Below, in pieces: positions 2,213-62,587 of a DNA stretch of 64,000 bases. The DNA comes from a virus. Location: positions 12,359 through 76,358 of the IMG/VR virus record IMGVR_UViG_3300046457_000118. One strand, given 5' to 3'. Within the stretch, counting starts at the first letter, position 1. Every line of letters starts with the position of its first letter. The position numbers and the translations under genes were made by a program. Below the pieces are notes generated by a model that made no database searches, was not told the DNA's origin, and was given only the letters and a program-made list of their open reading frames with translations.

Positions 2213-2244
2213 GCGGGTATTACCTATAACTCAAGGAGAACAAT

Positions 2245-2412: not shown

Positions 2413-2421
2413 GAGAACAAC

Positions 2422-3348: not shown

Positions 3349-3358
3349 GGAACCTTTG

Positions 3359-30120: not shown

Positions 30121-30131
30121 AAGTTTTTCCT

Positions 30132-45163: not shown

Positions 45164-45166
45164 TCC

Positions 45167-45361
45167 ATGATGCTGATCTACGGTATCGTCGTCATTGCCA
45201 TCATCGCAGGACTGTTCTTCGTGTCCATGCTGTTGTCGGCTGTGATGTCCGTGATCGGTGGTGTCATCGGTGCCGCCCTTGCGGGTGGTGCCGTGATAGC
45301 ATGGATTTATCTCTGCTGGTGCGGTTACCGTGCCAACAGGAAAAAAGGTGTCCGCAGGTAA
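45167..45361 (+). CDS. Small membrane protein
   Basis: Two hydrophobic helices, basic tail. Confidence 0.65.
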   Translation: MMLIYGIVVIAIIAGLFFVSMLLSAVMSVIGGVIGAALAGGAVIAWIYLCWCGYRANRKKGVRR

Positions 45362-45369
45362 TTGCTGAC

Positions 45370-45685
45370 CGTCACCCTCACGAAACGAGGGCAAACCTTT
45401 CAAATGGGTAGAGTAAAAATATCCCTCGGCATAAACGAGGGACCACACAGAGAGGCTTTCTCGGATGCATAGGGGCATGCTCACATGTTCCCTTATAAGC
45501 CTGACACCTTGAAAGTCTCTCTGTGTGGTGACGTGCAATGCTGATGCACAGGCAGGCTCCCAGTTAATTCCTTTTCTGGCAGCTTGCTGTCGGTGGAGAT
45601 GGATTTCCATGGGGGCCGACAAGCCGGATGAAGACAGCACCGGCCACCACTACATACCTGTTCCGGGAAGGATGGGTAAGCAGAA
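45370..45685 (+). ncRNA. Candidate structured non-coding RNA
   Basis: At least seven stems including a 19-bp helix (45442-45460/45511-45529); G-U wobbles favour the + strand. Confidence 0.5.
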
Positions 45686-45718
45686 GAAGAAAGCCCCCTC
45701 ACGGGGGCTTTTCTTTTT
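45686..45718. terminator. Bidirectional terminator
   Basis: AAAGCCCCC-TCAC-GGGGGCTTT with flanking A- and T-runs, between convergent genes. Confidence 0.85.
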
Positions 45719-48700
45719 AGTTGAAGGGCATCGTTACTGCCTTGTACGTGGCCAGCGTACCGATGGCTTGTGGGTAAGTGAACACACCAGCTTCAAGCGG
45801 GTTGTTACCCAGTCGATGGTAGAAGGAAGAATCCATCACCGTCGGCAGATGCTTGAAGTAGTGCGACAAGGCCACCAGTCCCAGAGCACGTCCCGGATTA
45901 CCCCGGTGCAGTGCCAGCAGCACCTTCTGGATACGCAGGTAGTACTTGGTGAACCTCACGAAGCCCATGTCGTTCAGGTACTGGGTACGGCGATCCGTGG
46001 GCACGTCATAGAAGATGAATGCCTCGGATGCCAACGAGACGGCTTCCTCCTTTGACATCGGGTCTTTCTTCTTGGTCGTCATGTGCTGGTACAGCGTATA
46101 GCGACCAAGGAAGTCCGAGATTTGGGCAGCTTCCGACAGCAACTGGTAGACATAAGTTTCATGGCCCATGTACAACTGGTTGGCCACCGACTTGACATCC
46201 GGATTGATCCAGCTAGTCAGTTGCTCCGTACGCTTGTTGAACTTCGACTTGTACGAGTAGATGTCGTCATCCATCTCCACATCATCCACGATGGTCGGCA
46301 TCAGGCCCGCTTGGATCAGTTCATGCATCGGGTTCCTTGCCAGTGCATCCTTCAGCTTGGCTACCCGAGCTTTATCCTCATTCACGTTGCCGGACGTTCC
46401 GGTGTCGAGCTTGGTCTGCAATGCGAACAGTTCAGCACTGTCACGCTTGTAGGCGATAGCGCCACGGAATGCAATGCGGTGACTGCGGAAGATTTCCGTC
46501 AAAGGTACACCGAAGCCATACAACATAGAGATGTTCGAGGTCATGTTGCCCATCAAAGTGGACAGGTTCTTCACGACCACGATGTCCTTGGCTTCCTTCA
46601 CCAGCCACTGCCACATCTCTTCGACAGTACGCAGACGCACCATTGCACGGGCTTCACGCGACTTGAAGTCTTCCGGATCAGCATGGTCGGACAGCATCTT
46701 GCCGGTACCGAGGAAACTCAACACATCCCCCATCAGCTTCTCCCAACCCTTGCGTGCTTCACGATCCTTCTTCAACACATCCGTGATCGACAGCTTACGG
46801 TAGCCGAAGGTCATGTCCAGCAGATCGATACGCACCTGCATGGCATCCGACTTCCACACTTCACGGATGGTCTGCTTGGCCGACTCAGGCAGTAGACGAT
46901 AGATTTCACGCATCTCCGGATCAGCCGAACGCGGACCCACTTCGATGAATGAACGGGGACGCTCGTTGAACTCCTTACGGTACTGTTCATACAGCGTTTC
47001 CACCACCGTGCGGTTCTGTTTAGGCGTGCCTTCCTTGTCGTAGATCGAACCTGCCATCGTGCCCATCAGCTTGTCGAAACGGTTGTCCCGGTCAAGCACA
47101 TTATCCTTCACGTCATTGGCCATCATGTAGCGGTAGTTGACCTTATCACCCTGTGGATTGATGACAGGTACAAGGTACTCTTCCGTCACCTTGTCCGGTT
47201 CAATCGGATGGGTGAACATACGCTGCACATCGTCTGCCACATTCTGGCCGATCTGGTGCATCATTTCCGCGTTGTATAGTCCTTGATCGCTGAAGAAGTC
47301 CAGTACGCCGTTGTGCTTGGTCGTACCCTTGGTATTCATCGAGGTCAGCGACATGCTGCCGGTCAGGTATGGTTGCAGACCCGAGCCATGACGTGCCATC
47401 AGGTAGTTACCACCTGCTTCCGGATCAGCCTTGGCTGTTGCCAGCTTCATGCCTTGACCAAAGCCTTGATCACGCAAGTCATCGAGTTCATCCTTACTTG
47501 CCAGACGCAGTTCGACATAAGGGTTGTAGACCTCCGGCAGATAGCCCTTCATCATCAGGGCTTCCTGATCCTTGAACAGACGTTCCTTCGAGTCGGCTTG
47601 CAGCTTCTCGTGCAGCTTCAGGGCCATCTCGACACCGTTGCCCTCATCCCGTGCCATCTCCTTGGCCATCAGTTCACTGGCCGTCGTCTTCTCATCGGCA
47701 TTCGAGTAATGCAGGGCATACAGCGATGCCAGATGATCGATGGCCGGTTCGAAGCGCATGGCATCCTGTGGCATTGCCTGAGTTGTGCCATACAGGCGTG
47801 CGATGGCATGGGCATTTTGCATGGTGTTGGCGGCTCGTGCCTTGCCATTCACCATCTTGTAGCCCAGTGCCTTGGCTGCATTCACGTAGTACATCTGGTG
47901 CGGCGACGTAGCCAGTTCCTGCGTCACATCGACGATGGCTTGGGACAGCTTGGCTTGGTCATTCAGCAGGGCATGCAAGTCCTTCATGTCCGTGTAACGG
48001 GACATCAGGGACGCCATGTCGGTGCGCAGGAACACGTTGCTAACGGCCTTCTTCATGTCGTCCGTCAGGTTCTTGCCCTCATCGCTGAAGGACTCGATCA
48101 GTACCTTCGAGGTACCGGCGATCAAGTCCTTGCGCTTGCCTTCAAACAGCTTGGCCATGCGCAGCAGATGCAGGAACACTCGGTTGCCATCATGGGCACC
48201 ACGAATCTCGTTGATAGTGTTGGCGAACATGCCGTTACTGTAGTGGAAGTGCTGGTCACTGAAGTCCTGATACGCCTGGACCACATGGTCCAGGCGTTCC
48301 TTGACCGTAGCCGACACCAACGAGCCAGTCATCTTCAGGTAGCCGTTCTTGGCTTCCTTGAAGAACTTCGAGTTGGCCACCTCATCGACCTTGTTACGTG
48401 CACCCTTGGCCACCGAATTGAGCATACCTTCGATGGCATTGACGGTCTGCGACTGTTCCACGTTCAGGCGGGCACGACGCTTGGCTTCGATCATCACAAG
48501 CTGGGTTGCCAGCGAGTCCAGCTTGCTGTCTGCCTGCTCGCCCATGCGGGTCTTGGTCCAGCGACCGACCACCCATTGCAGGGCTTCCTGCAACATCTGG
48601 TTCAGCTTACCCAGCAGGGTATCGGCAAACTGTTCGTCCGACTTCAGCTTGGTCTTGAATTGCAGCAGGGCGTTGATCTTCGGATTAACCAAGCCAAGGG

Positions 48701-51700
48701 ACACGAAGCGCGACAGATAGTCCGTATTCGGCGTCAGGGCAAACAGGAAGTCATATTCATCCTGCGTCAGTCCAGTACCGATCTGATCCTTCAGCTTGTC
48801 ACGGGCTTCCTCGTACAGCTTGCCGAGTTCCTTGAAGGCCACGCTGGTCACGCCATCGGCTCCCGACAGGGCAGCACGCATGGTCACTTCCACCTGTTCC
48901 AGCACGAAGGCCACCTGCTCGTTACCTGCCAAGCCATGGGCCACCGCATCCAGAGCGAATGGTGCCGTGCCATTGGTCTGGGCATTGGCCCAGATCGAGG
49001 CGGCACCCAGCGTACTGGTGCTCATGGCATCCTGACCGAAGGCACCGTAGATCGGGCTGAAGGTCTCGATCAGGCTGCTCAACAAGCCACGCAGACGGAC
49101 ATCATCTTGAGGCGACAATGGGTTGTTGGCGTTCTGCCCCAGTTCATTGTAGATGTCTGCCGTGGTATAACTCTGGGCCGGAGTAGCGTGCATCAAGGTC
49201 AGTTTGACACGCTCTGCCTCATTACCACGTGACTGTTCCATCAACCCAGAAACGTTGTAAATGAGGATCGACAATGCACGTTCTTTCGTGTCGGTGGCAT
49301 CACCAAAGAACAACTTGGTCATGGCATTGGCAAACACTTTCATGGCCTTGACCAAACGATTGCCACTAGTGCGAGACACCGGATACACGATCTGTTTCAG
49401 GAACTCTTGGAACTCCGGATTCGCCATGCCCCATGCGGTGAACTCCTGCACATCCGTCAAAGCACCCTTAAACTTTTCGGCACCCGGATAGTTTTTCACG
49501 TAGGTCAGTAGGTCTTCAAGGTCTTTGATAATAGATTTACTAGCCTTCGAGACAGGTGAATCAATCTCATGCGAGATGGCAGCATGCACCAATTCATGCA
49601 GCACAGTCTCAATGTTCATACCACTCGATGCAAAACCATCAGATTTTATGTACACATGGCTTTGCTGCCCTTTAGGTGCCAGTACGAACCAGCCGCATGC
49701 CTCTGAGTTTGGTAAGGAAAGCACTTCACCGGGATTGGTAGTAGGCGTAATCAGGTTGACGAACAGGTCTTCCGGCAGCACCTTGGCAAGCTGTTTTGCC
49801 AGCATATTGTTGACGCCAGTAGTGTTCTTGACCATATAGTCGATGGCTTCTTTGCCTGACAACGTGGCCTTGTCAGCGAACATTTTTTGTACCACCGGGT
49901 CCACTGCTCGCCACGTCGATACACCAAGACGACCGAACGGCGTCAAGCCAGTGCCATCAAGCGAATTCATGATGCGAGCAGTCTGCTCGATCTTCTCTGC
50001 CGTGTCAGGCTTACCTACCACAGCAGCTACTGCTGCCATGTCGGCGCCCTTGGTTTCCATGGTCGGAGCGGCATCAGCCTCTTCCATCGGTGCCGTCTCC
50101 ACTGCCTTGCCATCAGCGAAGTCACGGATGACATCGAATGCCTTGTGGGCTTCGTCGCTCATCTCGGTGACCACCGACTTGATATCGGCAAGTGCCTGTT
50201 CACGGACCGACTTCGGTACCTGATACTGGCCACTCTCCCATGTGTACTGGTCCACCACGCCAATCTTGGCGATGGTCGAGAGACGCACACGATCTGCATT
50301 CACGGCATTGGCGATGGCCATGGCACGGATACCGTTGACAGCTTCGGCCACCGACATATCCTGACGCTCCTTGGCTTTGACCTTGTTGCGTGCACCAACG
50401 ACTTCCTTCCACTGGGCCACGATGGCATTCACATCGGCCTTGTCGATTTCGCCGTCTTGGATACGCTTGGCCAGATCGGCAGCGATCCGCTCCACCATGT
50501 TCAGGGCTTCACGGGCAGGCGAGAACTTCGACAGTGCCTGTAACGTCGCACGGTTGATGGCCCCAGCTGCATTCGCCACTTCCAACACACCATGACCGAT
50601 CTCGTCGTGCACGTTCAGGGCTTCCTGCACCGAGGCCAGAGCCGAGTGCATCAGGAACGAGTCGAGCGAGTGGATCAGGTAAGGCGTACCTGCCACACCC
50701 GGACTCGTCTCCACACGGTCCATGCCCTTCATGTGCAGGTTCTTGCTGGAACTGAAGGAGCCATCAGGATTGGCCTTGCCATTGACCACAGGCGAAGCCA
50801 AGGTGATCTGCGATTGCAGCATCGGGTCATCCGAAAGCTGGGTTTCCTGCTTGCCCATGTAGATACCATTGGCCAGATCACCACCCATCGAGTAGGCGGT
50901 ATGGACCACTGGCAGCATGCCCGTCAGCTTCTCGCGCACAGCGTCTTCTTGTGCTGAGGTCAGGTCGGTACGGGGCTTCTTCTGCCCCTTGCCCGTTTCT
51001 TCGGTACCTCCGGTCTGCTCACGCCATGCCAGATGATCCTCTGCGATCAGGTCTTGAATAGCCTTCTTGCGTGCTGCCTTGTAGGCCACTTCGTACATGG
51101 CAAAGCCTGCCTGCACCGTACGGTTCAGGTCACCACGGCGTTCGATGAAGGTAGCGAAGTAGGACTCCATGGCCTGCTTGACTGGCTCACCCATGATGCC
51201 TCGGAAGGCTGCACGCAGCAGTTCCTCGCCATCCTTGGAGATCGGATGGTTCATGAGTTCAGCAGCCTTGACGTTCGTGTCGAACGGCTGGATGTCACCC
51301 TGAGACTTCATCAACACATTCATGGCATTCACGAAGCCAGACACATCAGCAGGCTTGCCAGCGTGTTCTTCCTTGGCCAGCTTCTCGATCTTCTTGTAGA
51401 TGCTGTCGATGAACTTGTTCTCCATCGCCGTGATGGAACCCTTCAGCGACGAACCGAAGGCGAATGCCGTCAGTGGCGTCTTCACCAGATCACGACCTTC
51501 CTTGGTCACATCCTGATTGGCATCCTGTAGCGTGCCGAGGATCGACTGCATGGCATCGAACGGAGCATCCTTGGTGACGTGCTTCAGCAGGTAGGATGCC
51601 AAGTCCTGATACAAGTCCTTGCCCTTGGTGTCCTTGCGCCACTGGCTGTAGTGCTGTGGCTGTCCTTCTGCCGAACCATAGATACCACCACGGGCCATAC

Positions 51701-53807
51701 GCTCCATCAAGTCATTCGAGTTGGGAGCGGCACCCAGTGCCAGTTGGGTCAGGATCGGGCCATTGGTCTTGCCGTCCGCACCCACTAGCATGGTCACATC
51801 GATGTGATCCTTGTCGGCGTACATCAGCTTGGCATAGGCCACCAGTGCTTGCAGGGTCTGCATGCCTTCTGCACCGGCAGCGAACTCGGTGATAGCTTCC
51901 GTGTTGGCCCACTGGTTTGCACTCAGACCATTGTGGATGGCTTCGACTGCTGCACGCAGCTTCGCATCATCGTTCCACTTCTGGTTCAGCATTGCCACCG
52001 TATCGGCATTCGGCTGATCATCGGTCTTCAAATCTTTGTAGCCCAGTGCACCAGCAATGGCGACCTTCAGTGCATCGACATGTGCCTCGTTCTTCAGGTC
52101 CACTTTCTGGGTCCAGCTTGGACGAGCGAACATGTAGCGATGAATCTTCGATGCCTGCTGGTTCAGCGACTCGGTGACCACACCTACACGGAAGTTCTTC
52201 CACACCTCGTACTGCACATAGCGAGGCGTGGTGATGTCTGCATGCATGTCACCCACATCCTGTGCACCTAGCATGTCCAGCGCCAGATCAAGCTGATTGG
52301 CCAGTCCACGGCTCTTGGCTTCGACACCCTTCTTGTTCACCTCGTGCACGAAGTCGGTATCCACATTCCTGGCACCAGCGACCTTGAGCACGTTGTCACG
52401 GCCAAGCGCACCCATCAGGGACCACATGTCAGGGATCACCGTGTGCGGCACCTTCTGGGCCTCGTTGAGCACCTTGGCCAGCTTGGCAGGCACCTTCTGA
52501 CGCGTGTTCTGGGCATACTCCTGCCGGAACTTGGCAGGCTTGGTCGAGGCGATCACCGGCGTCTTCTCGGAACCGAACAGGGTATCTACGATGGCGTTCG
52601 TACCCTTGTTCGCATCCTTGTACTCGGTCAGCTTTTCACGGTCTGCAAACACGTACACCGTGTTCTTCTTCGGATCGATCGGTGCTCCGGCCACAGGTTC
52701 GAACAGGTCGTTGATCATCTTGGTATTGATGGGACGACGCTCTACCAGTCCCTCGGATGCCAGTGCCACCAGCATACGGGCACCCAGAGCCGTCTTGAGA
52801 CGGGGCAGCAGGTCTTGTGGGGCATTGCTGTCCACGGTCAAGCCAAGGGCTTGCAGGGCCATTTCGCCCATGTCAGCAGCAGCGGTGTCCTCGATGTTGG
52901 TCACACCATCCAGCAGGGTATCGACCTCATGGCCATAGGTCGCATCCTTGTCACGACCATGCATCTTGTTCAGTTGTTCCTTCGTCTTGCCGGTGCTGTT
53001 CGACTCGTTGACCAGCCAGTGATACATGCCATAGCTCATGGCCGTCAGCACGTTCTCATCGACCGATACCTTGCTGCCTTCCTTGGTCAGCATGTACTGC
53101 ATCATGTCACGCAGCTTGAAGGCATCCTGCTTGTCGTAGGTGGCAAGCTGCTCTGACAGCACACCGTTCCACACCTTGGCTTTATCGGCAAAGTGCTTGA
53201 TGGCTGCTTTCTGATTAGCCGCTCGATCCGGATCGCTGTCGTACTGGATGAAGTCAGACGGTGCAACGATCTTCTTACCAAGCCAAGTGGAAAGGAAGTT
53301 GCGTACAGCGATCAGGGGACGATGGCCACCAGTCGTCTCCACCTTGGCTTTCTGCTTGAAGAACTGGGCAATCGGATTCATCGCCGGATTGCTGAACAGT
53401 TCCTGCATCTTGGTGGTCGGCTCGACCGTCAGACGGGAAGCCATCACACTCAGAGTGCCATGGTCGGCCAGCACATCTTCATGGTGGGTCTGTTCGTTCC
53501 CCGCCGTCGCAGCCTCCGCAACGGGCGCAGGGTTCGCTTCGCTCACCGCTGCTGGTTGCTGCGCTGCTTCCGGCTTGGCTTTGGGTTGCAGGGGCTGGCC
53601 ACCGTCGGCTTCATACGCACTGCGGACTTGGGCAATCACATCCTGATGCTCTTGTTGCAGGGTTGCCAAGCGGTCCTGCACGGCCTGATACATGGCTGCT
53701 TCTGCCTCCAACCCGTTCTGCTTGTGCTGTTCAGCCACATGGCGCAATGCCTGATGGTGGATCTTCTGATGCAGGCCGAGGCTGACAACGCATTTACGAT
53801 AGCTCAT
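45717..53807 (-). CDS. Virion RNA polymerase, catalytic domain plus C-terminal domain (2696 aa; C-half of split vRNAP)
   Basis: Motif A ADGKTNGP (~51770), motif B RDLVKTPLTAFAFG (~51470), PGVAG, motif C NVHDE (~50610), HELVH in the CTD. Confidence 0.92.
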   Translation of the reverse strand: MSYRKCVVSLGLHQKIHHQALRHVAEQHKQNGLEAEAAMYQAVQDRLATLQQEHQDVIAQVRSAYEADGGQPLQPKAKPEAAQQPAAVSEANPAPVAEAATAGNEQTHHEDVLADHGTLSVMASRLTVEPTTKMQELFSNPAMNPIAQFFKQKAKVETTGGHRPLIAVRNFLSTWLGKKIVAPSDFIQYDSDPDRAANQKAAIKHFADKAKVWNGVLSEQLATYDKQDAFKLRDMMQYMLTKEGSKVSVDENVLTAMSYGMYHWLVNESNSTGKTKEQLNKMHGRDKDATYGHEVDTLLDGVTNIEDTAAADMGEMALQALGLTVDSNAPQDLLPRLKTALGARMLVALASEGLVERRPINTKMINDLFEPVAGAPIDPKKNTVYVFADREKLTEYKDANKGTNAIVDTLFGSEKTPVIASTKPAKFRQEYAQNTRQKVPAKLAKVLNEAQKVPHTVIPDMWSLMGALGRDNVLKVAGARNVDTDFVHEVNKKGVEAKSRGLANQLDLALDMLGAQDVGDMHADITTPRYVQYEVWKNFRVGVVTESLNQQASKIHRYMFARPSWTQKVDLKNEAHVDALKVAIAGALGYKDLKTDDQPNADTVAMLNQKWNDDAKLRAAVEAIHNGLSANQWANTEAITEFAAGAEGMQTLQALVAYAKLMYADKDHIDVTMLVGADGKTNGPILTQLALGAAPNSNDLMERMARGGIYGSAEGQPQHYSQWRKDTKGKDLYQDLASYLLKHVTKDAPFDAMQSILGTLQDANQDVTKEGRDLVKTPLTAFAFGSSLKGSITAMENKFIDSIYKKIEKLAKEEHAGKPADVSGFVNAMNVLMKSQGDIQPFDTNVKAAELMNHPISKDGEELLRAAFRGIMGEPVKQAMESYFATFIERRGDLNRTVQAGFAMYEVAYKAARKKAIQDLIAEDHLAWREQTGGTEETGKGQKKPRTDLTSAQEDAVREKLTGMLPVVHTAYSMGGDLANGIYMGKQETQLSDDPMLQSQITLASPVVNGKANPDGSFSSSKNLHMKGMDRVETSPGVAGTPYLIHSLDSFLMHSALASVQEALNVHDEIGHGVLEVANAAGAINRATLQALSKFSPAREALNMVERIAADLAKRIQDGEIDKADVNAIVAQWKEVVGARNKVKAKERQDMSVAEAVNGIRAMAIANAVNADRVRLSTIAKIGVVDQYTWESGQYQVPKSVREQALADIKSVVTEMSDEAHKAFDVIRDFADGKAVETAPMEEADAAPTMETKGADMAAVAAVVGKPDTAEKIEQTARIMNSLDGTGLTPFGRLGVSTWRAVDPVVQKMFADKATLSGKEAIDYMVKNTTGVNNMLAKQLAKVLPEDLFVNLITPTTNPGEVLSLPNSEACGWFVLAPKGQQSHVYIKSDGFASSGMNIETVLHELVHAAISHEIDSPVSKASKSIIKDLEDLLTYVKNYPGAEKFKGALTDVQEFTAWGMANPEFQEFLKQIVYPVSRTSGNRLVKAMKVFANAMTKLFFGDATDTKERALSILIYNVSGLMEQSRGNEAERVKLTLMHATPAQSYTTADIYNELGQNANNPLSPQDDVRLRGLLSSLIETFSPIYGAFGQDAMSTSTLGAASIWANAQTNGTAPFALDAVAHGLAGNEQVAFVLEQVEVTMRAALSGADGVTSVAFKELGKLYEEARDKLKDQIGTGLTQDEYDFLFALTPNTDYLSRFVSLGLVNPKINALLQFKTKLKSDEQFADTLLGKLNQMLQEALQWVVGRWTKTRMGEQADSKLDSLATQLVMIEAKRRARLNVEQSQTVNAIEGMLNSVAKGARNKVDEVANSKFFKEAKNGYLKMTGSLVSATVKERLDHVVQAYQDFSDQHFHYSNGMFANTINEIRGAHDGNRVFLHLLRMAKLFEGKRKDLIAGTSKVLIESFSDEGKNLTDDMKKAVSNVFLRTDMASLMSRYTDMKDLHALLNDQAKLSQAIVDVTQELATSPHQMYYVNAAKALGYKMVNGKARAANTMQNAHAIARLYGTTQAMPQDAMRFEPAIDHLASLYALHYSNADEKTTASELMAKEMARDEGNGVEMALKLHEKLQADSKERLFKDQEALMMKGYLPEVYNPYVELRLASKDELDDLRDQGFGQGMKLATAKADPEAGGNYLMARHGSGLQPYLTGSMSLTSMNTKGTTKHNGVLDFFSDQGLYNAEMMHQIGQNVADDVQRMFTHPIEPDKVTEEYLVPVINPQGDKVNYRYMMANDVKDNVLDRDNRFDKLMGTMAGSIYDKEGTPKQNRTVVETLYEQYRKEFNERPRSFIEVGPRSADPEMREIYRLLPESAKQTIREVWKSDAMQVRIDLLDMTFGYRKLSITDVLKKDREARKGWEKLMGDVLSFLGTGKMLSDHADPEDFKSREARAMVRLRTVEEMWQWLVKEAKDIVVVKNLSTLMGNMTSNISMLYGFGVPLTEIFRSHRIAFRGAIAYKRDSAELFALQTKLDTGTSGNVNEDKARVAKLKDALARNPMHELIQAGLMPTIVDDVEMDDDIYSYKSKFNKRTEQLTSWINPDVKSVANQLYMGHETYVYQLLSEAAQISDFLGRYTLYQHMTTKKKDPMSKEEAVSLASEAFIFYDVPTDRRTQYLNDMGFVRFTKYYLRIQKVLLALHRGNPGRALGLVALSHYFKHLPTVMDSSFYHRLGNNPLEAGVFTYPQAIGTLATYKAVTMPFN

Positions 53808-54195
53808 CTTGTGCGATTTCAAAAAGGAGTTGGAGGATTACCAGTTCTTCTTCTTCTTCGGAAACGTTGAAGACCGGAATTTCATATTTCTGTGTGTCAG
53901 CATTATAGTACTGCCTTACCGTAGGGTATCGACTCTTTCCGGGAGAAGAACCACCACTTTGCGGTACCGGTACAACCTGTCGGACAGGAGGGCCAATATC
54001 GAACTCGGCCCATGCCACATCGACACGGGTACCCAAGTAGGCCGTATCGAACACGGCCCAGGTGACATCCACCCGGACCGCTGCATTCGTGTCGAGTTCG
54101 GCCCACTCAATCTGGGCAATAGGCGTGACGCCAGACCGCGTATCCCCCGGTGCCTGTGTGTCAAAGGTTACCCAATTGACAGTGACCTGCATCAC
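53794..54195 (-). CDS. Cassette protein with four V-x-V-x-W-x-x-F-D repeats and an acidic/hydrophobic C-terminal helix
   Basis: Overlaps both neighbouring genes; ends EEEEELVILQLLFEI. Confidence 0.75.
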   Translation of the reverse strand: MMQVTVNWVTFDTQAPGDTRSGVTPIAQIEWAELDTNAAVRVDVTWAVFDTAYLGTRVDVAWAEFDIGPPVRQVVPVPQSGGSSPGKSRYPTVRQYYNADTQKYEIPVFNVSEEEEELVILQLLFEIAQDELS

Positions 54196-55826
54196 ACTGC
54201 CTCGAAGGTCAGGCGCAGGTCACTGTAGTCGGTGATGGCATCACACTGGTCCACGGACAGCACTTGCGTGAACACGGTCTGCACTGTAGGCAGCATGATG
54301 TGTTCCCATTGTGCGATCACGGTCATACCTTGCTTGAGCGTCACGATCAAGCCATTGCCCGTTACCGATCCAGCCTTGTAGCGCACCACCTGAGCAGTAC
54401 TGGTCTGCGGATCAACCACGTTGTTCAGCTTGACTTCACAGCTACCCGGTGCCGTGGTACTGATGCCGGTGCCACCATTCTGCTTCAAGCCAGCCGACAA
54501 GGAACTCTGTGCCGTGGTCCAGGCACCCGGATCGATGTCTCCGATAGGACGTGCATAGCGTGGATCAGGAGGCTGGGGCGTACTCGTGACGGTCGGTGCA
54601 TAGCCGGTGACACCTACGCTGTCGGTATCCGGCAGCAGCCAGTGATGGTCGGTACGTAGCAGGGAGGGTGCATAGCCTGCCAGTGCAATCCCTTCATAGA
54701 CAGGCTGTACCGTGACGTGCTGGGTCTGCGTGATGACGGGTGCGTAACCTACCAGCAGCACATCCTCGCTACCCTCCTGCACCATCTGGTTATTGGTTTG
54801 CGTGACGATGGGCGCATAGCCTTGCAGTCCCACCGTACTGCCATTAGGTAGCAGGAACTGGTGCAGTGTCTGGTTTACCGAAGGGGCATAACCTTGTACT
54901 GCCAGCGGTTCACCAGACGGTGACAGGAACTGGTGTGCCGTACGGTCCACGGTAGGTGCATACCCGGTCAAGCCAATCGCTTCCGATCCCGGTGACAGGA
55001 AGTTGTTGGCACTCTGGATGATGCTGGGCGTATTGCCGGTAACGAGGATACTGCCTTTGCCAGGAGCCACATTCGTGGGTGCCGTGGCCAGCATGTAGGC
55101 AATCGCAGCCGCAAGACTGTTGTTGACCGGAGCCTGCCACACTTGCCAGATGTTCCGGTACAGGGCGTATATCTCTGCCGCAGAGAGTGCCCGGTTGTAG
55201 ATCAGGTTTGCATAGGGAAGTGCGCCACCATTGGTGTTACCACCCGCCGCATCAGCCTCGTACATCGAGAAGCCATTGCTACCGATGGCCGTAGTCCCGG
55301 CCGCTATCGTACTGACGGCCACACCGTTCACATACAGCGTCTGGACGTTATTCGTCTTGTCCCATACACCGGCAATGAACATGACTTCACCGGATGCCGG
55401 AGCAGTCGGTGCAGTCCATGAATTGGTGGAAGTCGGGCCAGCAAACGCAATGCCGGTGTTGTTGTTAAAGGCATTGGTACCCAGTCCAAGGGACTGGGCA
55501 TTGACGTTGGTTGTGCGATAGCGAATCGCAAACTGTGCATCCGACAAGCTGACATTGTTGCGTCGAATGAGGCTGACAAACGTGACCGCGTTCAGGCCGG
55601 TCATCATGCCATTCGATGCGCTCGTGCTGGGCACGATGTCAGGATTAACCAGACCGCCCGTGGTATTACGGGTCATGTAGCGACCGGCAGGGCCAGCCGC
55701 ATGCGTCGGAATCTGATGACCCAGACGAGCCGAGATCAATCCATAGGCAAGCGGGTTGGCCTTGTTGATGGGTACGAGTTGCTGGGGCTGTTGCCGCAGC
55801 ACGCTCAAGGGCAGCGGCGCACCCAT
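54192..55826 (-). CDS. LamG/concanavalin-like fibre protein with seven 24-aa repeats
   Basis: FIAGVWD..LYVNG..IYNRALSAAEI; GYAP repeats. Confidence 0.8.
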   Translation of the reverse strand: MGAPLPLSVLRQQPQQLVPINKANPLAYGLISARLGHQIPTHAAGPAGRYMTRNTTGGLVNPDIVPSTSASNGMMTGLNAVTFVSLIRRNNVSLSDAQFAIRYRTTNVNAQSLGLGTNAFNNNTGIAFAGPTSTNSWTAPTAPASGEVMFIAGVWDKTNNVQTLYVNGVAVSTIAAGTTAIGSNGFSMYEADAAGGNTNGGALPYANLIYNRALSAAEIYALYRNIWQVWQAPVNNSLAAAIAYMLATAPTNVAPGKGSILVTGNTPSIIQSANNFLSPGSEAIGLTGYAPTVDRTAHQFLSPSGEPLAVQGYAPSVNQTLHQFLLPNGSTVGLQGYAPIVTQTNNQMVQEGSEDVLLVGYAPVITQTQHVTVQPVYEGIALAGYAPSLLRTDHHWLLPDTDSVGVTGYAPTVTSTPQPPDPRYARPIGDIDPGAWTTAQSSLSAGLKQNGGTGISTTAPGSCEVKLNNVVDPQTSTAQVVRYKAGSVTGNGLIVTLKQGMTVIAQWEHIMLPTVQTVFTQVLSVDQCDAITDYSDLRLTFEAV

Positions 55827-55827
55827 A

Positions 55828-56277
55828 TCAAGCCACCGTGTAGGAAACTTCCATCGTACGCAGCGTGCCAGCCGTGAAGGCTACGCCGCTATCGTTCTTC
55901 ACGACGAAACGTACCATCGGCGGCAGGATGCCACCGAATGCAGCGGCCACACTGAATGTGCGGTCCTGCGCACCTGCTGCCGTCTTCAGGGACAGCGTAC
56001 CCAGTTGTGTCAGGTTCGGTTCATCCGTGGCCGTAGTACCGGAACCCGGACCACTCTGCCACGTCGTACCACCATCGTAAGAAGCCTGTGCGAACAGGAC
56101 TGCTTGCTGATTACCGGCGGTCGTACCCGGCGTGATTGCCAGTTCGGCCAACAGGTCGCTCTGCTGGTTGACGTTGGAGTACTGTGCCGAGGTGACATAC
56201 GTGGCTGCGGCCAGTGTGGACAGACCCGTGACGGTCAGTGCAGCAGGAGCGGAGATGATTTGTTTTGCGGTCGCCAT
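55828..56277 (-). CDS. Beta-rich cassette protein (putative fibre component)
   Basis: 1-2 nt spacing; ASYDGGTTW, FVVKNDSG. Confidence 0.75.
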   Translation of the reverse strand: MATAKQIISAPAALTVTGLSTLAAATYVTSAQYSNVNQQSDLLAELAITPGTTAGNQQAVLFAQASYDGGTTWQSGPGSGTTATDEPNLTQLGTLSLKTAAGAQDRTFSVAAAFGGILPPMVRFVVKNDSGVAFTAGTLRTMEVSYTVA

Positions 56278-56279
56278 TA

Positions 56280-56711
56280 TCAGTTCCAGTTATTCATTAC
56301 GTCGAGCACGGTGACCGGTGCCAGTCCAAGGACTTGGGCACGGCTTGCTGGCTGGATGGCGAGGGCTTTCAACTCGTCGCCTTCACTTTGGTCGAGTACC
56401 TGCAATGCTACCAAGCCATTGATATTCGCCTTGGTCGCACCATCATTCACATTCAGGCCCGTCGAACTGTTCAAACGGTTCCATGCCACCAGTACCACCG
56501 CATCCTGTTGGGATGCCGCATACAGCTTGCGAATGATCGAGGGACCACTGGGGCATTCGGACAGGATGGTCAGTGCCGTGACCCAGCGTTCCTGTGCCAT
56601 GGTCGTAAGCTGGACATTCAGCAGATCGGCCACGATGCCAGGAGCATCCGGCAGGTACACGGCATAGCCCATGCCAGTAGGGTCTTGTCGGAGTTCTTCA
56701 ACGAGCGTCAT
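56280..56711 (-). CDS. Cassette protein
   Basis: ATGA overlap; ELRQDPTGMGYA...SRAQVLGL. Confidence 0.75.
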   Translation of the reverse strand: MTLVEELRQDPTGMGYAVYLPDAPGIVADLLNVQLTTMAQERWVTALTILSECPSGPSIIRKLYAASQQDAVVLVAWNRLNSSTGLNVNDGATKANINGLVALQVLDQSEGDELKALAIQPASRAQVLGLAPVTVLDVMNNWN

Positions 56712-56920
56712 GGTTTGTTCACCGGGTTCATGATGTTGTGGAGACAGTGGTCAGGCCAGAAGCGTGATAGCAACCAGCAAACCAAGGAGCAGAACCTGCA
56801 AGGTCTGCCTTCCTTGAGTTTGCGACCCATGTTGGACGACATGGTTTCCACGTCGCCTCCGAACACGGTATTGAGCCAGATATCCGAAGCCAGCCAGAAA
56901 TTAGCCAGATACCGTTTCAT
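56708..56920 (-). CDS. Small Cys-containing phage protein
   Basis: D.WLNTVFGGDVETMSS.MGR...C..C...DHC. Confidence 0.7.
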   Translation of the reverse strand: MKRYLANFWLASDIWLNTVFGGDVETMSSNMGRKLKEGRPCRFCSLVCWLLSRFWPDHCLHNIMNPVNKP

Positions 56921-56923
56921 GGA

Positions 56924-57400
56924 TCACGCCTTGGTGATGTTCAGGTAACCAGCCGCAGGCGTATTCACGTTCAGGTTGTTGCCTGCTGTGGTAGCCGGTA
57001 CGTCAGCAGGCGTAGCGTCACCGAGGAAGTGGCCCACCACCGGATTGACCTTGCCATTGAGCGTGCCGACGTAGTAAATGACACCACGACGCCATGCCGG
57101 AAGCGAGCCACCTGCTGCCGCCCACTGGACGTTATCGCAGGTGAACTTGATCACGCCAGCAGCCATCGACAGGGCCACATTGGTCAGTGCCTTGCCACCA
57201 GCCGTATAGCCATTGCCCGCAGCGACCTCACTGCCCGAGAAGTCAGCCCAGACTTCATTGCCGGTATCCGAGTTGTCCGGTGCCATGGCAGAGGTTACGA
57301 GTGCCATCTTGAAGTTGGCGGCATTCGCTGCCAGCAAGCCAGTGGCATTGAACATGTTGAGGAATGCTTTGTTGGGTACGACGAGAGTTCCAGCAGCCAT
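56924..57400 (-). CDS. Fibre/adaptor-type virion protein
   Basis: FKMALVTS...EVAAGNGYTAGGKAL...DNVQW...VIY, a pattern typical of small phage fibre proteins. Confidence 0.75.
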   Translation of the reverse strand: MAAGTLVVPNKAFLNMFNATGLLAANAANFKMALVTSAMAPDNSDTGNEVWADFSGSEVAAGNGYTAGGKALTNVALSMAAGVIKFTCDNVQWAAAGGSLPAWRRGVIYYVGTLNGKVNPVVGHFLGDATPADVPATTAGNNLNVNTPAAGYLNITKA

Positions 57401-57421
57401 GGATGGCCCCTTTCAAGTGAA

Positions 57422-57706
57422 TTATCGAATTACTTCCACGATGACCTTGATCATCTTGCCTTCAGCGTCACGAACGATGTCCGCTTCCAGACGCTTGGTT
57501 TGTACCGGTTGAGGCATATCCTGTATGGCCTTGACCGCTTTATTCATGGTTGAAGCCATGGAAACCACCTGATTCAACGATGCCTGCATCATGCGCAGGT
57601 AGGCCGGATCAATGGCGGCTGTCTCAGCCTGTTCCTTCTCTTCCGATTCAGGCTTCAGCAGTTTTTTCTTGGCTTCATCCAGTTCAGCCCGCGTCATTGT
57701 TCGCAT
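57422..57706 (-). CDS. Small cassette protein ending IVRDAEGKMIKV
   Basis: Starts 1 nt after the stop of the vRNAP N-half. Confidence 0.7.
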   Translation of the reverse strand: MRTMTRAELDEAKKKLLKPESEEKEQAETAAIDPAYLRMMQASLNQVVSMASTMNKAVKAIQDMPQPVQTKRLEADIVRDAEGKMIKVIVEVIR

Positions 57707-57707
57707 A

Positions 57708-60700
57708 TCAGCCCTTCATACAGGAAGCCAGTGCTTCCAACTTGGCGATCTCGTCCCGGATAGCCTTGAGCACCTTGTGAGCAGGTTTGGGTTGACCATC
57801 GTGATCGAACCTCTTTTCATCGGATACCCAGACATCCTTATGTGCTACCGGTGTATTCCAATATGACTTTGGAATCCCTTCTCCGGTATCAACGTTGGAT
57901 TCTTTAGGAGAACTATTGCTGGATGGTACCACACCGGCATCTTGCTTAGAAGCATTGTCGGTAGATGTGGCCGTAGCCGATTGAGCAACCGTGGCCTGAG
58001 CGGCGTCAGCCGCGATTGGGCCGGAAGGTTGCGATTGAGGCGAGGCAGCAGGGGAGTTACGTTGATCGTATTCCTGTTTCCACGCCTGGAACTCGCGCTT
58101 ACCTTCTACCGTATCTTGCGAAGGAATCCCCAGCGTAGCCCGCACCTGCACGATGAATGATGCGTGTTCATCTTGCGGAATCACCTTCATCTGATCTTTC
58201 AAAGCCAGACGCACTTGGGTTGCAGTCTTGCCTTGCGCAAACTGGTCTTCAATCTGTTTGGTCAAGCCAAGGGTATCCGACTGGTCGCGGGCAGCTTGTG
58301 CATTGATATTGGAGAAGCCATCAGCCTTGGGACCGACTTGTACACGAGGAATACTGTTGGGTGTAGTTGTCGAAGTGTCAGCAGAAATATTTTCTGCCTT
58401 ACTCTTAACTTCTTGAGAGATTTGAGTGGGTTTTACAACAGTCTGAACAGGTTTATCGTTCAGACGTGTCTTGCCCTCTCCGGTTTTCTTAGAAGATATG
58501 TTTTGGGACGTAGGTTGTGCAGTGGGATGAGCGGACTGTACCACAGCATTCCCGAAACGCAAAGCCACCGCAGCCGACAGGGAGGCATGTGCTGCCCTCA
58601 GTGCCTTGGCTTCATTCTGGATTTCCTTGATCAGCTTGCCAGAATTTTCGTGCACGTTGACGGCACCGTTCTCTGCACGCTGCTTGTCGTTCAGTCGCTT
58701 GCCTGTATTCACCTGCCACTTACCATCCTGCTTGACGATCTGGTCTCCCACGTCAGCCTTGGCAATGGCCCGCAGCTTTTCCATGTGGCTATCGGCAAAC
58801 GCCCCCAGCAGGGACAGGTTACGCTCGGCACTCTGCTGGTTACCCGACGCCACCGCAGCACCAATGCGAGTACGGTACTGCTCGATGCCGATATTACCGT
58901 TGGGCTTCTTCTGGCCGAACAGCACTTCCTGCGACACATCCGACTGCTTCTTGACTTCGTTCTCTGCCGTGCGTGCTTCACTGAACTTGCGCAGCACATC
59001 ACGCTGTTCCGTACTCAGACCATTCTCGGTGTTGTTCACCAGATTCTTGATGGCACTCGGATCAATCGAGTCCGGTGCGGTCATGGACAGGTTCAGCAGC
59101 ACATCACCTGCCTTCGATGCCACCTTGGTGTCAGTCGAGTTGGCAGCTTCGAGGTGAGTGTCCACTTCAGTCTGGGACGGAGTGGGATTGGCCAGCCGTA
59201 CAAGGTCATGATGTACCTCACGAGCATCGGCCAACTGACGTGTGACTTCACTGAGTCGGTTCTGACGGGCCAACACAGCTTCTTTGCCGGTCAGTCCTTC
59301 CAGTTCAGTACGCATTGCTTTCAGATGATCACCAAACATGGCATGGTCATCCGGTGTTGCATCGGGATCGTTCAGCAAGCTTTCGGTGTTGGTGATCTCT
59401 TCTTTCAGAACCTTGATACGTTCAGGTGCATTGGCTTGCTTCTGTTCTATCTGCTGCTTACGTTCTTCAAGCTGCGAAATGACTTCACCCGACTTCTGCA
59501 AGTGTTCCTGCACTTGTTCAGGCTGTACACCGTCCTGCTTGCTCATTTCATGGAGCACGGCCACTGCCTTGGCAGGGCTATAGTCAGGACTGTTCGTATC
59601 GAGGAAGGTTTCGGGAGCCTTGTCTGCCACCGCTTGCTGCACCTTGGCTTGCTCCGTTGCCGCTTGGGTTTCCGCCTGTGCCCGTTCAGCCACATGTTCT
59701 GGCGTTGCTTGCAGGGCTTCAGCCGTGCCATGCAGACCACCGGACAGGCCAGCACCTGCGACACCACCCACCACAGCACCTTGGAAGATGTCCAGAGCCG
59801 ATGCAGGCTTCTGGTTGATCTCCCCCTCTGCCCACGTCTGGTAGCCCTCGGTCGCCGTTTCTTCTGCGCCACCTTCAGCAGCGGCAATGGCCGTACGCTT
59901 CAGGGATTGCAGCAGGCCCGCCTTGGTCGCCTGTGCACCTGCCTCGGCAGCACCCGCAACACCTTCTGTGGCCTTGGCGATCTTGCCCAGACCGCCCACG
60001 GCATGCTGGAACATGTCACCACCATGTTCGGCAGCAGCCAGCGAGGCCGACAGCAGAGCCATGCGGGTACGTTCATTCTCTGGAGGCATGGCGCCATTGT
60101 GCTGCTTGGCATACTCTTCCAGACCGGTACGGTAGTTGTCGGCTGCATAGCCCACATTGGAAGCCAACATACCTGCCTTGCCCACAGCACCAAACTCACC
60201 CAACAGCAGTTGGGGAGCATTCTCGATGATGTATTCACGGGTTGCCGAAGGGTTGGTGACCACGGCTTCACCAGCATTCATCAGCAAACCAGCGATACCG
60301 GCAACGACCTGACTCGGCTTGCCATCCTTCCAGCCCGACTTGACCTTGTTCCATTCGTTCTCGAAACCATCACCAAGAGCCGTGTTCAACTCATTGCGAT
60401 TGGTTTGTTCGACGATATTCGACAGGTCGAAGGTGTTACGGACATCCTTGGCCTGACTACGAAGGTAGGCTGCATCGCTTGGATTGGAGGTCAACGAGGC
60501 GAAGGTATTGGCTGGCAGCGACAGGATGTCACCAGCCAGACGAGAGCCGCCAGATACCAGCGAAGCCACGTCATTGACACGGTTACTGAGGAAGGAACCA
60601 CCATCCAGTCCCAGTTGCCCAGACCACGAAGTATCCTGTGGTGCCTGCTTCGCTGCCAGTGCAGCCTTCTTGTCGGCAGATGCCTGAGCAAGTTCCACTT

Positions 60701-60761
60701 GCTTGCGTTCGATGTCGGCACTCCGTACCGGACGGAATGCATCGAAGTTGAAGTTGGACAT
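57708..60761 (-). CDS. Virion RNA polymerase N-terminal domain as a separate gene (1017 aa)
   Basis: CAGGAA RBS; EETATEGYQT..EG, VSQEVLFG...GIEQYR, FADSHMEK, LIKEIQNEA; follows the gp51-like gene as N4 gp50 does. Confidence 0.82.
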   Translation of the reverse strand: MSNFNFDAFRPVRSADIERKQVELAQASADKKAALAAKQAPQDTSWSGQLGLDGGSFLSNRVNDVASLVSGGSRLAGDILSLPANTFASLTSNPSDAAYLRSQAKDVRNTFDLSNIVEQTNRNELNTALGDGFENEWNKVKSGWKDGKPSQVVAGIAGLLMNAGEAVVTNPSATREYIIENAPQLLLGEFGAVGKAGMLASNVGYAADNYRTGLEEYAKQHNGAMPPENERTRMALLSASLAAAEHGGDMFQHAVGGLGKIAKATEGVAGAAEAGAQATKAGLLQSLKRTAIAAAEGGAEETATEGYQTWAEGEINQKPASALDIFQGAVVGGVAGAGLSGGLHGTAEALQATPEHVAERAQAETQAATEQAKVQQAVADKAPETFLDTNSPDYSPAKAVAVLHEMSKQDGVQPEQVQEHLQKSGEVISQLEERKQQIEQKQANAPERIKVLKEEITNTESLLNDPDATPDDHAMFGDHLKAMRTELEGLTGKEAVLARQNRLSEVTRQLADAREVHHDLVRLANPTPSQTEVDTHLEAANSTDTKVASKAGDVLLNLSMTAPDSIDPSAIKNLVNNTENGLSTEQRDVLRKFSEARTAENEVKKQSDVSQEVLFGQKKPNGNIGIEQYRTRIGAAVASGNQQSAERNLSLLGAFADSHMEKLRAIAKADVGDQIVKQDGKWQVNTGKRLNDKQRAENGAVNVHENSGKLIKEIQNEAKALRAAHASLSAAVALRFGNAVVQSAHPTAQPTSQNISSKKTGEGKTRLNDKPVQTVVKPTQISQEVKSKAENISADTSTTTPNSIPRVQVGPKADGFSNINAQAARDQSDTLGLTKQIEDQFAQGKTATQVRLALKDQMKVIPQDEHASFIVQVRATLGIPSQDTVEGKREFQAWKQEYDQRNSPAASPQSQPSGPIAADAAQATVAQSATATSTDNASKQDAGVVPSSNSSPKESNVDTGEGIPKSYWNTPVAHKDVWVSDEKRFDHDGQPKPAHKVLKAIRDEIAKLEALASCMKG

Positions 60762-60780
60762 GAAGTTTCCTGAGTGAATG

Positions 60781-60837
60781 TATTTTGGAATTATATACAG
60801 GAAAGGGTGGACCAACGACTGTCAGCCCACCCTTTTG
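60781..60837 (-). promoter_or_regulatory. Terminator-like hairpin followed by a TATAAT -10 box (late promoter candidate)
   Basis: Minus strand GGGTGGGCTGAC-AGTC-GTTGGTCCACCC TTTCCTGTA TATAAT. Confidence 0.5.
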
Positions 60838-60853
60838 CACGAAACCCGCTCCT

Positions 60854-62587
60854 TTAGTTACCCAGCAGCTTCTTCAGTCGTTCACGTTCGGCCATGACCT
60901 TGGCCAGTTCGGCATTCGTGTCAGCGATATCGATGCTGTCCCGGACACTCCCTCGCTTCTGGTAAATCTGAAGGTTGGATTGCAGATCAGCGATCTTGTT
61001 ATCGAGCCGACTTGCAGCTTGCTGTTGTTGGGCCATACGAGCCTTGTCATTGAGAGCAGACTGACGGTCCATCATGGCCTGATTACGCTTGTTGGCTTCG
61101 GCAGCACGAGCCATGAACTCTGCTTTGGCAGCAGCCTTTGCATCTGCTTCCTGCTGGACCGACATCTGACGTGCTTCGAGGTTGGCCGCTTCACGGGCAG
61201 CAAACATGTCAGCACTGGTCGGACCCTGACCGGCAGGCGAATTGCGTGCCTGATTCATCAGGTCATTCAGACGCTGTTGGGCAGGTGGCAGTACAGGGGC
61301 AGCAGGAGCCTGTACGGGTGCCGCAGTAGCCGAAGGAGCACCCACAGCAGGAGCAGCGGGCTGGGCAGGATTGTTCAGCGACTGTGCATCACCGAACGGA
61401 TTAGCTACCAAGGTACCGGCACCTACGGAACGTACAGCAGGCGTACTTGCACCCGTACCCGGATCACCCAAGCCAAGACCTCCAGTCGTCAAGCCATCAC
61501 GGCGTACCTGATTGGCAGCGATCTTGGCGCTCAAGGTCTTACGAAGTTCCTCCGCGTATTTTGCATCCTCGGCACCGGTGCCATTCGCAGCCAATTTAGC
61601 GGCATTACGAGCAGCAGCAGAACGCTCAAGAATACCCAGAGTCCAGCTCTGGTCAATACCCTTGATACTGGCAATGACTGCGTTGGTGGTGATACCAGGA
61701 TTCTTCTTTAGGATCTCAGATGCAGCGATACGTGCCTGTTTCTGATCTGCCGGGTCTTTGATGCTGGCGACAGCATCATCGATCACTGCTTGACCCACCA
61801 GCGAATCTGCCTTGTTCTTGAAGGTATTGGCGTACTCGGTACGATACTTGGCATCACGCGCTTCCAAGTGGTCATCCAGCGCCAACATGGCATTAGCTTC
61901 ATTCACCGAAGCGTTACGACCCGCAATCTTGACCTGTTCTTGATTGGATCGTGCATTCATGAAACCAATCGAAGAATCATTGGCCATGTGCGTGATGCTG
62001 GCCGCGTTCATCTGACCTTTCCAGTCATGCTCTTGGTCAGCATGTGCACGGTCGATCAACTGACGTTGGGCATCGTTACCGTTACGGTACAGGTCGGCCT
62101 TGACACGCAGGTCCATGGAAGGCAGTTCCTTCATGGCCGCATCGATCTGTGTCTTGTCACCGGAAGCCAACATGCCAGCGATACGGTCACGGTCCTTGGC
62201 CTGCGTCTCATCCAGCATCGCATGGTTGTAGGCGATGTCCTTGATGGCACGGTCTTGCAGCACATTGCCACGCTGGTCTGCGAAGTTACGGATGGCCTGC
62301 TGGTCGATACCGGCACCATAGCTGTCCAGTGTGGCACCGAGGTTCTGCTTGGCCTGCTTGAAGGCATCCACGCTGTCGGCACTCATCAGGCGGTTCATCA
62401 CCTCATTGGTGGCATTGGTACGTCCAGCTTGGAAGTTGGAGTCTTGGATCGCACTACGTTGGTCCAGCACGTTATGGATAGCACCGAAACCCATGTCGAA
62501 TGCCCGTGCTGCGGCATCCAATGGGCGACTGGCTTCGGAGAGCGAGGAACCGGGCACATTGTCCCAGCGAATAGGTTGGTAACCCAT
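60854..62587 (-). CDS. Virion ejection/structural protein (N4 gp51-like position)
   Basis: PIRWDNV N-terminus, Ala/Gln-rich, Cys-free; syntenic position. Confidence 0.75.
   Translation of the reverse strand: MGYQPIRWDNVPGSSLSEASRPLDAAARAFDMGFGAIHNVLDQRSAIQDSNFQAGRTNATNEVMNRLMSADSVDAFKQAKQNLGATLDSYGAGIDQQAIRNFADQRGNVLQDRAIKDIAYNHAMLDETQAKDRDRIAGMLASGDKTQIDAAMKELPSMDLRVKADLYRNGNDAQRQLIDRAHADQEHDWKGQMNAASITHMANDSSIGFMNARSNQEQVKIAGRNASVNEANAMLALDDHLEARDAKYRTEYANTFKNKADSLVGQAVIDDAVASIKDPADQKQARIAASEILKKNPGITTNAVIASIKGIDQSWTLGILERSAAARNAAKLAANGTGAEDAKYAEELRKTLSAKIAANQVRRDGLTTGGLGLGDPGTGASTPAVRSVGAGTLVANPFGDAQSLNNPAQPAAPAVGAPSATAAPVQAPAAPVLPPAQQRLNDLMNQARNSPAGQGPTSADMFAAREAANLEARQMSVQQEADAKAAAKAEFMARAAEANKRNQAMMDRQSALNDKARMAQQQQAASRLDNKIADLQSNLQIYQKRGSVRDSIDIADTNAELAKVMAERERLKKLLGN

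Follow-up and report, generated by a model that had tools for sequence, protein, structure and literature searches.

We analysed a 64,000-nt stretch of phage DNA (the window), bases 12359-76358 of the 76,358-bp IMG/VR record IMGVR_UViG_3300046457_000118, in which the giant virion RNA polymerase (vRNAP) of an N4-like phage is encoded by two separate genes. The source is an uncultured N4-like phage from plant-root soil. CheckV completeness was 100%, and the 76-kb genome is complete and N4-like (Schitoviridae-type), with N4-like genes for DNA polymerase, rIIA and an N4-type primase in the window. The late operon, on the minus strand, ends with an N4 gp53-like gene (E 2.5e-9) and weaker gp52- and gp51-like genes. 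The polymerase locus comes next, the same place that the vRNAP gene gp50 takes in N4.

The open reading frame (ORF) map of the minus strand showed a gene for the N-terminal domain (NTD) of the vRNAP at 60761-57708, then seven small genes (c1 to c7), then a gene for the RNA polymerase (RNAP) part at 53807-45717. The two vRNAP genes lie 3.9 kb apart. Spacings from the NTD gene through c1 to c7 to the RNAP gene were +1, +21, +3, -4, +2, +1, -4 and -14 nt. A first-pass annotation of the window, made from its letters, had described seven packed, co-directional ORFs with gaps of 1-21 nt or overlaps, the last of them overlapping the start of the C-terminal half; the map agreed to the base, and the overlap was 14 nt.

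The NTD chain (60761-57708, minus strand) has 1017 aa from its ATG, or 1035 aa from an upstream TTG. The 1017-aa protein matched phrog_2206 (virion RNA polymerase, 3406 positions) at 135-878 (E 7e-59). It had 409 homologues, nearly all of them the N-termini of vRNAPs of 3300-4600 aa. The NTD-like character assigned to this gene earlier was thus borne out, both by the profile match and by alignment to single-chain (fused) vRNAPs. The chain has three parts. Its core, residues 1-792 (58386..60761, minus), is homologous to the NTD of single-chain vRNAPs, with 54.5% identity to residues 1-788 of the fused protein P0006 and 26-38% to nine fused IMG/VR vRNAPs. The linker, residues 793-960 (57882..58385, minus), is window-specific and mostly low-complexity, has no counterpart in P0006, and varies among stand-alone NTDs, whose alignment has many gaps here. 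The last 57 residues, 961-1017 with the stop codon (57708..57881, minus), form a terminal module, the tail, made of a beta-hairpin and a helix and ending ...LEALASCMKG. The cysteine in it, C1014, is the only one of the NTD chain.

The RNAP chain (53807-45717, minus) has 2696 aa from its ATG. Residues 1-70 (53598..53807, minus) form the head, a module of three helices (MSYRKCVVSLGL...) that begins MSYRKC... and holds Cys6. Residues 71-2696 (45717..53597, minus) comprise a short linker, a T7-like polymerase, a variable region (~aa 1228-1540) and a C-terminal domain (CTD). The protein matched phrog_2206 at positions 794-3397 (1594 bits) and contained the Pfam domain vRNAP_dom_2. Every catalytic motif reported in the first pass was recovered: R540, D678, K776, F784 and D1068 align with R424, D559, K670, Y678 and D951 of the N4 mini-vRNAP. 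The CTD, residues 1483-2642, matched residues 2329-3446 of gp50 in PDB entries 11gp and 9pnr, with whole-sequence E values of 5.9e-55 (11gp) and 1.5e-54 (9pnr) for the RNAP chain.

Relatives were sought among 1.8 billion representatives, and the best 150 cluster representatives were classed. The closest relative, P0006, is a single chain of 3497 aa with an NTD 59% identical to that of the window. Residues 1-792 of the NTD chain align with P0006 1-788, and residues 76-2695 of the RNAP chain with P0006 827-3496 (48% identity over 827-3496). From these two alignment ends, ~38 residues of P0006 are replaced in the window by ~4.8 kb (~53583-58385). In N4, the NTD and the RNAP are connected by a flexible low-complexity linker, residues 907-1006 (PMC13434306), and the breakpoint in the window is the counterpart of this linker. 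In addition to the seven genes, the extra DNA encodes 225 aa at the C-terminal end of the NTD chain and 75 aa at the N-terminal end of the RNAP chain. The first-pass annotation had proposed a foreign seven-gene module in the interdomain linker. Two intact chains and the site of insertion held up, but the module is larger than proposed and includes the linker and tail on one side and the head on the other. The core of that interpretation, a two-chain vRNAP produced by foreign DNA at the linker, is supported.

Integrity of the split was checked with Logan contigs from two rhizosphere metagenome runs. In the first run, one 43-kb contig covered all of 45000-61500 with zero differences. In the second run (X2), depth was ~110-134x throughout, and a 14.9-kb contig crossed the junction between the NTD gene and the cassette. 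No contig in the two runs joined the NTD and RNAP halves directly, skipping the cassette. Both halves proved intact, as the first pass had held, with ORFs open over 3.7 kaa (thousand amino acids) and the catalytic residues kept. The earlier statement that hallmarks of recombinases, introns and inteins are absent also stood, with no such signal in Pfam, PHROG or Rfam. None of c1 to c7 matched an integrase, transposase or homing nuclease in Pfam or PHROG, and Rfam showed no family in the locus, introns included. No direct or inverted repeats beyond chance size flanked the module, and no enrichment of promoters or terminators was found at the seven-gene cassette.

Misassembly, which the first pass had named as a danger, or an insertion-killed vRNAP in a defective phage, is very improbable. 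The record is an uncultured IMG/VR contig, and both supporting runs may themselves be its sources, so the independence of the two-run support is weak. However, no alternative joints appear at the junctions in either the 43-kb contig or the second run, where coverage exceeds 100x, and the long ORFs, the conserved catalytic residues and the complete genome do not suggest decay. Moreover, five other genomes have junctions of both types, and nine other clusters have an NTD fused to a tail. This recurrence is stronger evidence against an artefact than the two runs.

Run X2 also contained a minority contig (depth ~41-45 versus ~110-135) without 756 nt at 49175-49932 in the RNAP gene, corresponding to 252 codons, in frame. 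The same contig lacked 127 nt at 45391-45519, just 3' of the gene for RNAP and CTD. The 756-nt stretch has a low GC content (0.49) and falls in the poorly conserved region of ~aa 1228-1540, which separates polymerase from CTD and in which BLAST alignments to relatives are also interrupted. The stretch resembles an optional insert, present in some of the co-existing strains and absent from others.

A survey of split and unsplit alleles, which the first pass had called for, showed that the split is not unique to the window. Fused vRNAPs made up 133 of the best 150 cluster representatives. A single chain was found in ~93% of related clusters, including all cultured Schitoviridae seen, and the nine IMG/VR relatives (26-38% identity) were all single ORFs of 3400-3707 aa without the cassette. 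Ten stand-alone N4-like NTD proteins were detected (899-1191 aa, 35-42% identical to the NTD of the window). They represent nine clusters besides that of the window, because P0009 and P0153 share one cluster, so at least nine other clusters have a stand-alone NTD. In these nine, the tail was read from the NTD proteins alone; the full module layout was read in six genomes. P0153 comes from a 78-kb JGI contig and P0076 from one of 56 kb. All ten stand-alone NTDs end in ...D.I..L..LL.CM(K/G)G followed by the stop codon. A hidden Markov model (HMM) of the tail had zero matches in ~135 fused vRNAPs, and no remnants of tail or head were found in the fused proteins. The split is not general in this lineage either, since the sister P0006 and most relatives are fused.

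In the NTD tree, the tailed proteins were scattered, and the window was sister to the fused P0006 with 100% support. Well-supported branches forced at least six changes between the split and the fused state. A single clade of split NTDs was rejected by the approximately unbiased (AU) test (difference in log-likelihood 289, p 8.6e-5).

Single-protein scans of IMG/VR with the NTD of the window, P0153 and P0076 gave no match, and a metagenome scan with a poor pattern returned one fused vRNAP only (L013). The tail region, c6 and the c7/head DNA had no match among 50,697 cultured-phage records (tblastn, blastn), and the head region matched nothing but itself in a word-index search. A degenerate DNA pattern for the tail, applied to IMG/VR, retrieved five genomes of podophages (G001-G005; 59-80 kb, GC 63-65%), none of them with an N4-type vRNAP. 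A further record from the DNA-pattern scan, L016, was discarded as a chance hit, with no tail HMM match and no cassette genes.

All five genomes had the same layout: a tail-bearing protein, a c1 homologue, variable fibre-like genes, a c7 homologue and a head-bearing giant. The tail-bearing protein, 1291-2052 aa in the four complete cases (the one in G004 is cut by the contig end), ends ...NLEA(L/M)LKCMKG. The head-bearing giants, 1439 to ~3900 aa long, start MSF(D/E)HCLSL... and are homologous to residues 1-70 of the RNAP chain. The stop of the c7 homologue overlaps the start of the head-bearing gene, and G005 has all seven cassette genes in the order of the window. PHROG scans of the alternative cassettes in G001 and G002 gave almost no matches. 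The giants on either side of the module are polyvalent and DarB-like, with SLT, InPase, RadC, and methyltransferase and helicase regions, and the two halves in G003 are collinear with a single 4436-aa DarB-like protein of Ralstonia phage NK-7. Since both the polyvalent giants and the vRNAP carry it, one module splits two unrelated families of giant virion-delivered proteins. As judged from sequence comparison, the module is homologous and syntenic between the window and podophages without an N4-type vRNAP, which would identify the kind of donor.

Three further observations concern these podophages. The head-bearing giant of G001 starts with TTG (L034:14138), runs off the contig end and resumes at G001:10-6168 across the terminal repeat, reaching ~3900 aa; an ORF caller that works on the linear record would report two pieces. 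In Pseudomonas phage F116 (L038), p59 and p60 are adjacent giant genes of 2129 and 1649 aa, 22 nt apart and related to the giants of the five genomes. Neither p59 nor p60 matched the tail or head HMM, so giant polyvalent proteins also occur split without the docking pair. In the window, a 1476-aa protein without a PHROG match (25912-30342, minus) is 64% identical over residues 78-605 to a 727-aa protein of G004 (G004:47778-49961). The shared stretch is a second common module, probably a tail spike or fibre, and suggests common hosts and gene flow.

The survey and the tree could also be explained by the reverse course of events, in which the tail/head split is old in part of the N4-like radiation and single chains arose repeatedly by in-frame deletion of the module. 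The scatter of split NTDs, with its minimum of six or seven state changes, fits this, deletion of one contiguous block is mechanically simple, and P0006 keeps a short, non-homologous joint of 38 residues. But ~93% of the clusters are fused, among them all cultured Schitoviridae seen, the fused proteins have no tail or head remnant, and the module is well established in unrelated phage lineages. We consider this reverse course unlikely and favour entry of the module into vRNAPs that were single chains.

A profile search extended the tail to 40 clusters of tail-bearing proteins, with SLT, InPase, FtsK-gamma or no Pfam domain. Among more than 60 sequences with tail HMM matches, 55 matches end at the last residue of the protein, 8 end 1-2 residues earlier and 0 further in. 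The head HMM match starts at residue 1 in every called protein. In all six genomes, tail and head are on two co-directional genes of one locus, and a low-complexity linker connects each module to the rest of its protein.

Cysteines were distributed in an equally regular manner. Each stand-alone NTD has exactly one, at position -4 (-3 in P0098, -5 in P0050), and 126 of 138 fused vRNAPs are cysteine-free. Of the five head-bearing chains counted, four have no cysteine besides the conserved one of the head (residue 6, numbered from the true start); the RNAP chain of the window also has C1371. In a family that is otherwise nearly cysteine-free, the split vRNAP of the window has one cysteine at each broken end.

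In three metagenomic proteins of 165-178 aa (P0183, P0187, P0190), a Pro/Ala-rich linker connects a head to a tail that ends CMKGGA, and the protein has no other parts. They may serve to extend a head-to-tail chain or to cap it. The AlphaFold2 (AF2) model of a head-linker-tail protein had both modules confident and the linker disordered, with the head as three alpha-helices. Foldseek found no PDB relative of this model.

The complex of the tail (residues 950-1017) and the head (residues 1-78) was predicted with an ipSAE of 0.71 in each of three runs, while the best of three controls reached 0.00. This mark was met by 58 of 80 solved complexes and by 2 of 110 mismatched pairs, counts that hold only roughly here because the alignments were self-supplied. 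The runs shared at least 81% of contacts, and the predicted local distance difference test (pLDDT) of the partners was at least 82. In the predicted complex, the tail helix packs on head helix 3, and C1014 contacts C6 with an expected error of 0.8 A. With no fold match in the PDB, the predictor is unlikely to have reproduced a complex that is already solved. The prediction supports, but does not show, binding of tail and head.

It is very improbable that one polypeptide is restored, whether by a split intein, by an intron or by translational bypass. The extra 57 aa at one C-terminal end and 70 aa at the other N-terminal end give the two chains a superficial likeness to split-intein halves. The head, however, is all-helical in the model and not a Hint fold, no Hint or intein Pfam match was found, there is neither an extein-junction nucleophile nor an HN+Cys/Ser/Thr motif, and the conserved cysteines are at the free ends, the wrong ones for an intein; a split intein was rejected on these grounds. 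Rfam found no intron, and seven conserved protein-coding genes lie between the halves.

Another explanation is that both chains are functional and do not dock with each other. Tail and head would then be independent signals, for capsid targeting, for the order of ejection, or as sites for c1, c7, the portal or the ejectosome, and the polymerase would be packaged and ejected alone. c1 and c7 are constant companions of tail and head, translation of c7 is coupled to that of the head-bearing gene, the head-linker-tail mini-proteins fit a shared third partner equally well, and the domains of N4 vRNAP are only loosely associated (PMC13434306). On the other hand, the specific tail-head interface was predicted with high confidence and three controls at 0.00, the model places the sole end cysteines of both chains face to face, and the two modules, strictly terminal, co-occur in six of six genomes. 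We regard independent signals as rather improbable.

The explanation that we favour, and hold to be fairly probable as a whole, is a two-chain vRNAP with a tail/head docking clasp, carried by a portable module that was inserted by recombination. Tail and head would probably clip the two halves back together. Chain 1 (~110 kDa) would be the membrane-inserting, ejection-associated NTD with a long disordered linker and the 57-residue tail. Chain 2 (~295 kDa) would be the 70-residue helical head with a short linker, the polymerase and the CTD. Docking of tail and head would bring the lone end cysteines C1014 and C6 together, probably as a disulfide in the virion, and would rebuild the NTD-linker-RNAP connectivity of the one-chain enzyme. 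We infer that the polymerase would thus be packaged together with the NTD and would follow it through the tail channel into the cell, and that the clasp could open in the reducing cytoplasm, so that the polymerase is released from the membrane-bound NTD. The portable unit (linker and tail, c1, fibre-like genes, c7 and head) would have entered the vRNAP linker by recombination. Its entry into the vRNAP, or the reversal, would have happened several times among N4-like phages.

Besides the possible common origin of the two runs and the record, several points weigh against this explanation. The tail varies: P0098 ends in CRG, and the group ending in CMGG has no beta-hairpin. The complex score is a model confidence, obtained with our own small alignments (14 and 6 rows). 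The C1014-C6 disulfide is suggested only by the predicted geometry and the cysteine pattern. c1 and c7, which match tail and head in conservation, could be their true partners instead.

The seven cassette genes, all on the minus strand, differ in conservation. The first gene after the tail in all six module genomes, as seen from synteny and alignment, is c1 (57422..57706, 94 aa). It had no family match in Pfam or PHROG, and atlas look-ups of c1 and c7 returned only unnamed phage clusters, below the lead threshold. c2 (56924..57400, 158 aa) matched phrog_644 and is virion-structural or fibre-like; its G005 homologue (49-55% identity) also matched tail-fibre and virion-structural PHROGs. c3 (56708..56920, 70 aa; phrog_3342) encodes a small four-cysteine protein; with 57-62% identity to its copies in G005 and G002, it is conserved best among the cassette genes. 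Its cysteines are C41, C44, C48 and C59, it has the conserved motif ...WLLSRFWPDHC.HNIM.P, and it may be a small metal-binding or membrane protein. c4 (56280..56711, 143 aa) has homologues in G005 and G003 (31-39% identity), and c5 (55828..56277, 149 aa) was assigned from the ORF map and its syntenic position. c6 (54192..55826, 544 aa) has a ConA-like lectin domain (Laminin_G_3, PF13385, E 2.8e-8) and 24-residue repeats, visible as direct repeats spaced 72 nt apart, with homologues in G005, G003 and G004. It is a probable fibre or receptor-binding protein; its AF2 model was poor (pLDDT 38.6). The phrog_644 match of c2 and the lectin domain and repeats of c6 suggest that both are virion or fibre proteins.

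c7 (53794..54195, 133 aa) immediately precedes the head in all six module genomes, and in the window its stop overlaps the RNAP-chain start by 14 nt. In the four genomes with coordinates read, the overlap of the c7 stop with the head gene was 14 nt in the window and 11 nt in G005, G002 and G001. The c7 proteins of the window and G001-G005 have 2-4 V.V.WAEFD-like repeats, then Y..IP and an acidic amphipathic C-terminal helix (...DEDDIIATILIQLAHHVL).

Compared with N4 gp50 and other Schitoviridae vRNAPs (single chains of ~3400-3700 aa), the enzyme of the window has a homologous NTD, a T7-like core with all catalytic motifs, and a CTD. Unlike gp50, it comes from two genes, carries the extra tail and head at the broken ends, and is not one polypeptide of ~3500 aa. 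Docking domains of polyketide synthases (PKS) and non-ribosomal peptide synthetases (NRPS) are short, matched domains on flexible linkers, one at the C-terminal tip of a polypeptide and the other at the N-terminal tip of the next, that restore the order of a multi-domain assembly line. The likeness to tail and head is a functional analogy only, with no sequence or fold relation (no PDB match), and the phage pair differs in its virion setting and its probable covalent cysteine clasp.

For Shigella phage pSb-1 and Alteromonas phage AD45-P1, the vRNAP has been described as 'separated' into adjacent ORFs; the separations were blamed on gene-calling errors or read-through, and the ORFs were concatenated for analysis (PMC10654107). 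These share with the window a vRNAP annotated as more than one ORF, but no intervening genes or docking modules were described. In the literature searched, vRNAP splits appear only as such rare adjacent-ORF separations (PMC10654107), and no description of a tail/head clasp was found. The phage polyvalent proteins, a class of giant, multi-domain, virion-delivered proteins that are DarB-like, include N4 vRNAP (Iyer et al. 2017, PMC5512222); the word 'split' does not occur in the text of that paper. Among them, NK-7 has one chain and F116 two adjacent giants without tail and head, whereas the module phages have a split with tail and head. In phiRIO-1, two structural genes divide the tubular tail protein B into gp44 and gp40; virions contained both polypeptides, and the authors describe such splits as not common (PMC4819975). 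As in the window, a podovirus virion protein is split by structural genes and not by a mobile intron; the protein is a different one, and no terminal docking modules were reported.

New in this work are the breakpoint relative to a fused sister, the rejection of a single origin, the module common to phages with non-N4 polyvalent proteins, the mini-proteins and the controlled complex prediction. Giant injected proteins of other phages, unrelated to the vRNAP, carry the tail/head module too, and its best reading is a portable docking or disulfide clasp that lets ejected giants be encoded as two chains. More tentatively, and with somewhat less than even confidence, we propose a portable split-and-clasp kit, made up of tail, head, c1 and c7, that is passed among unrelated podophage lineages through recombination. 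The kit could turn the linker of any giant ejected protein into a joint between an ejection half and a cargo half, disulfide-latched in the virion and freed by cytoplasmic reduction, with head-linker-tail mini-proteins daisy-chaining cargo.

In the N4 infection model, the polymerase is pulled in behind its own NTD and then tethered to the membrane by the covalent linker (PMC13434306). A natural two-chain enzyme tests the need for covalent continuity in packaging and ejection, and the clasp points to a simple redox switch for cargo release. For annotation, hallmark searches for a full-length vRNAP will miss or mis-join such genomes. Since they are small (57 and 70 aa), have no known fold relative and occur in at least two unrelated giant families, tail and head are possibly a general means of phage cargo loading and delivery, and they might be used to load phage heads with foreign proteins.

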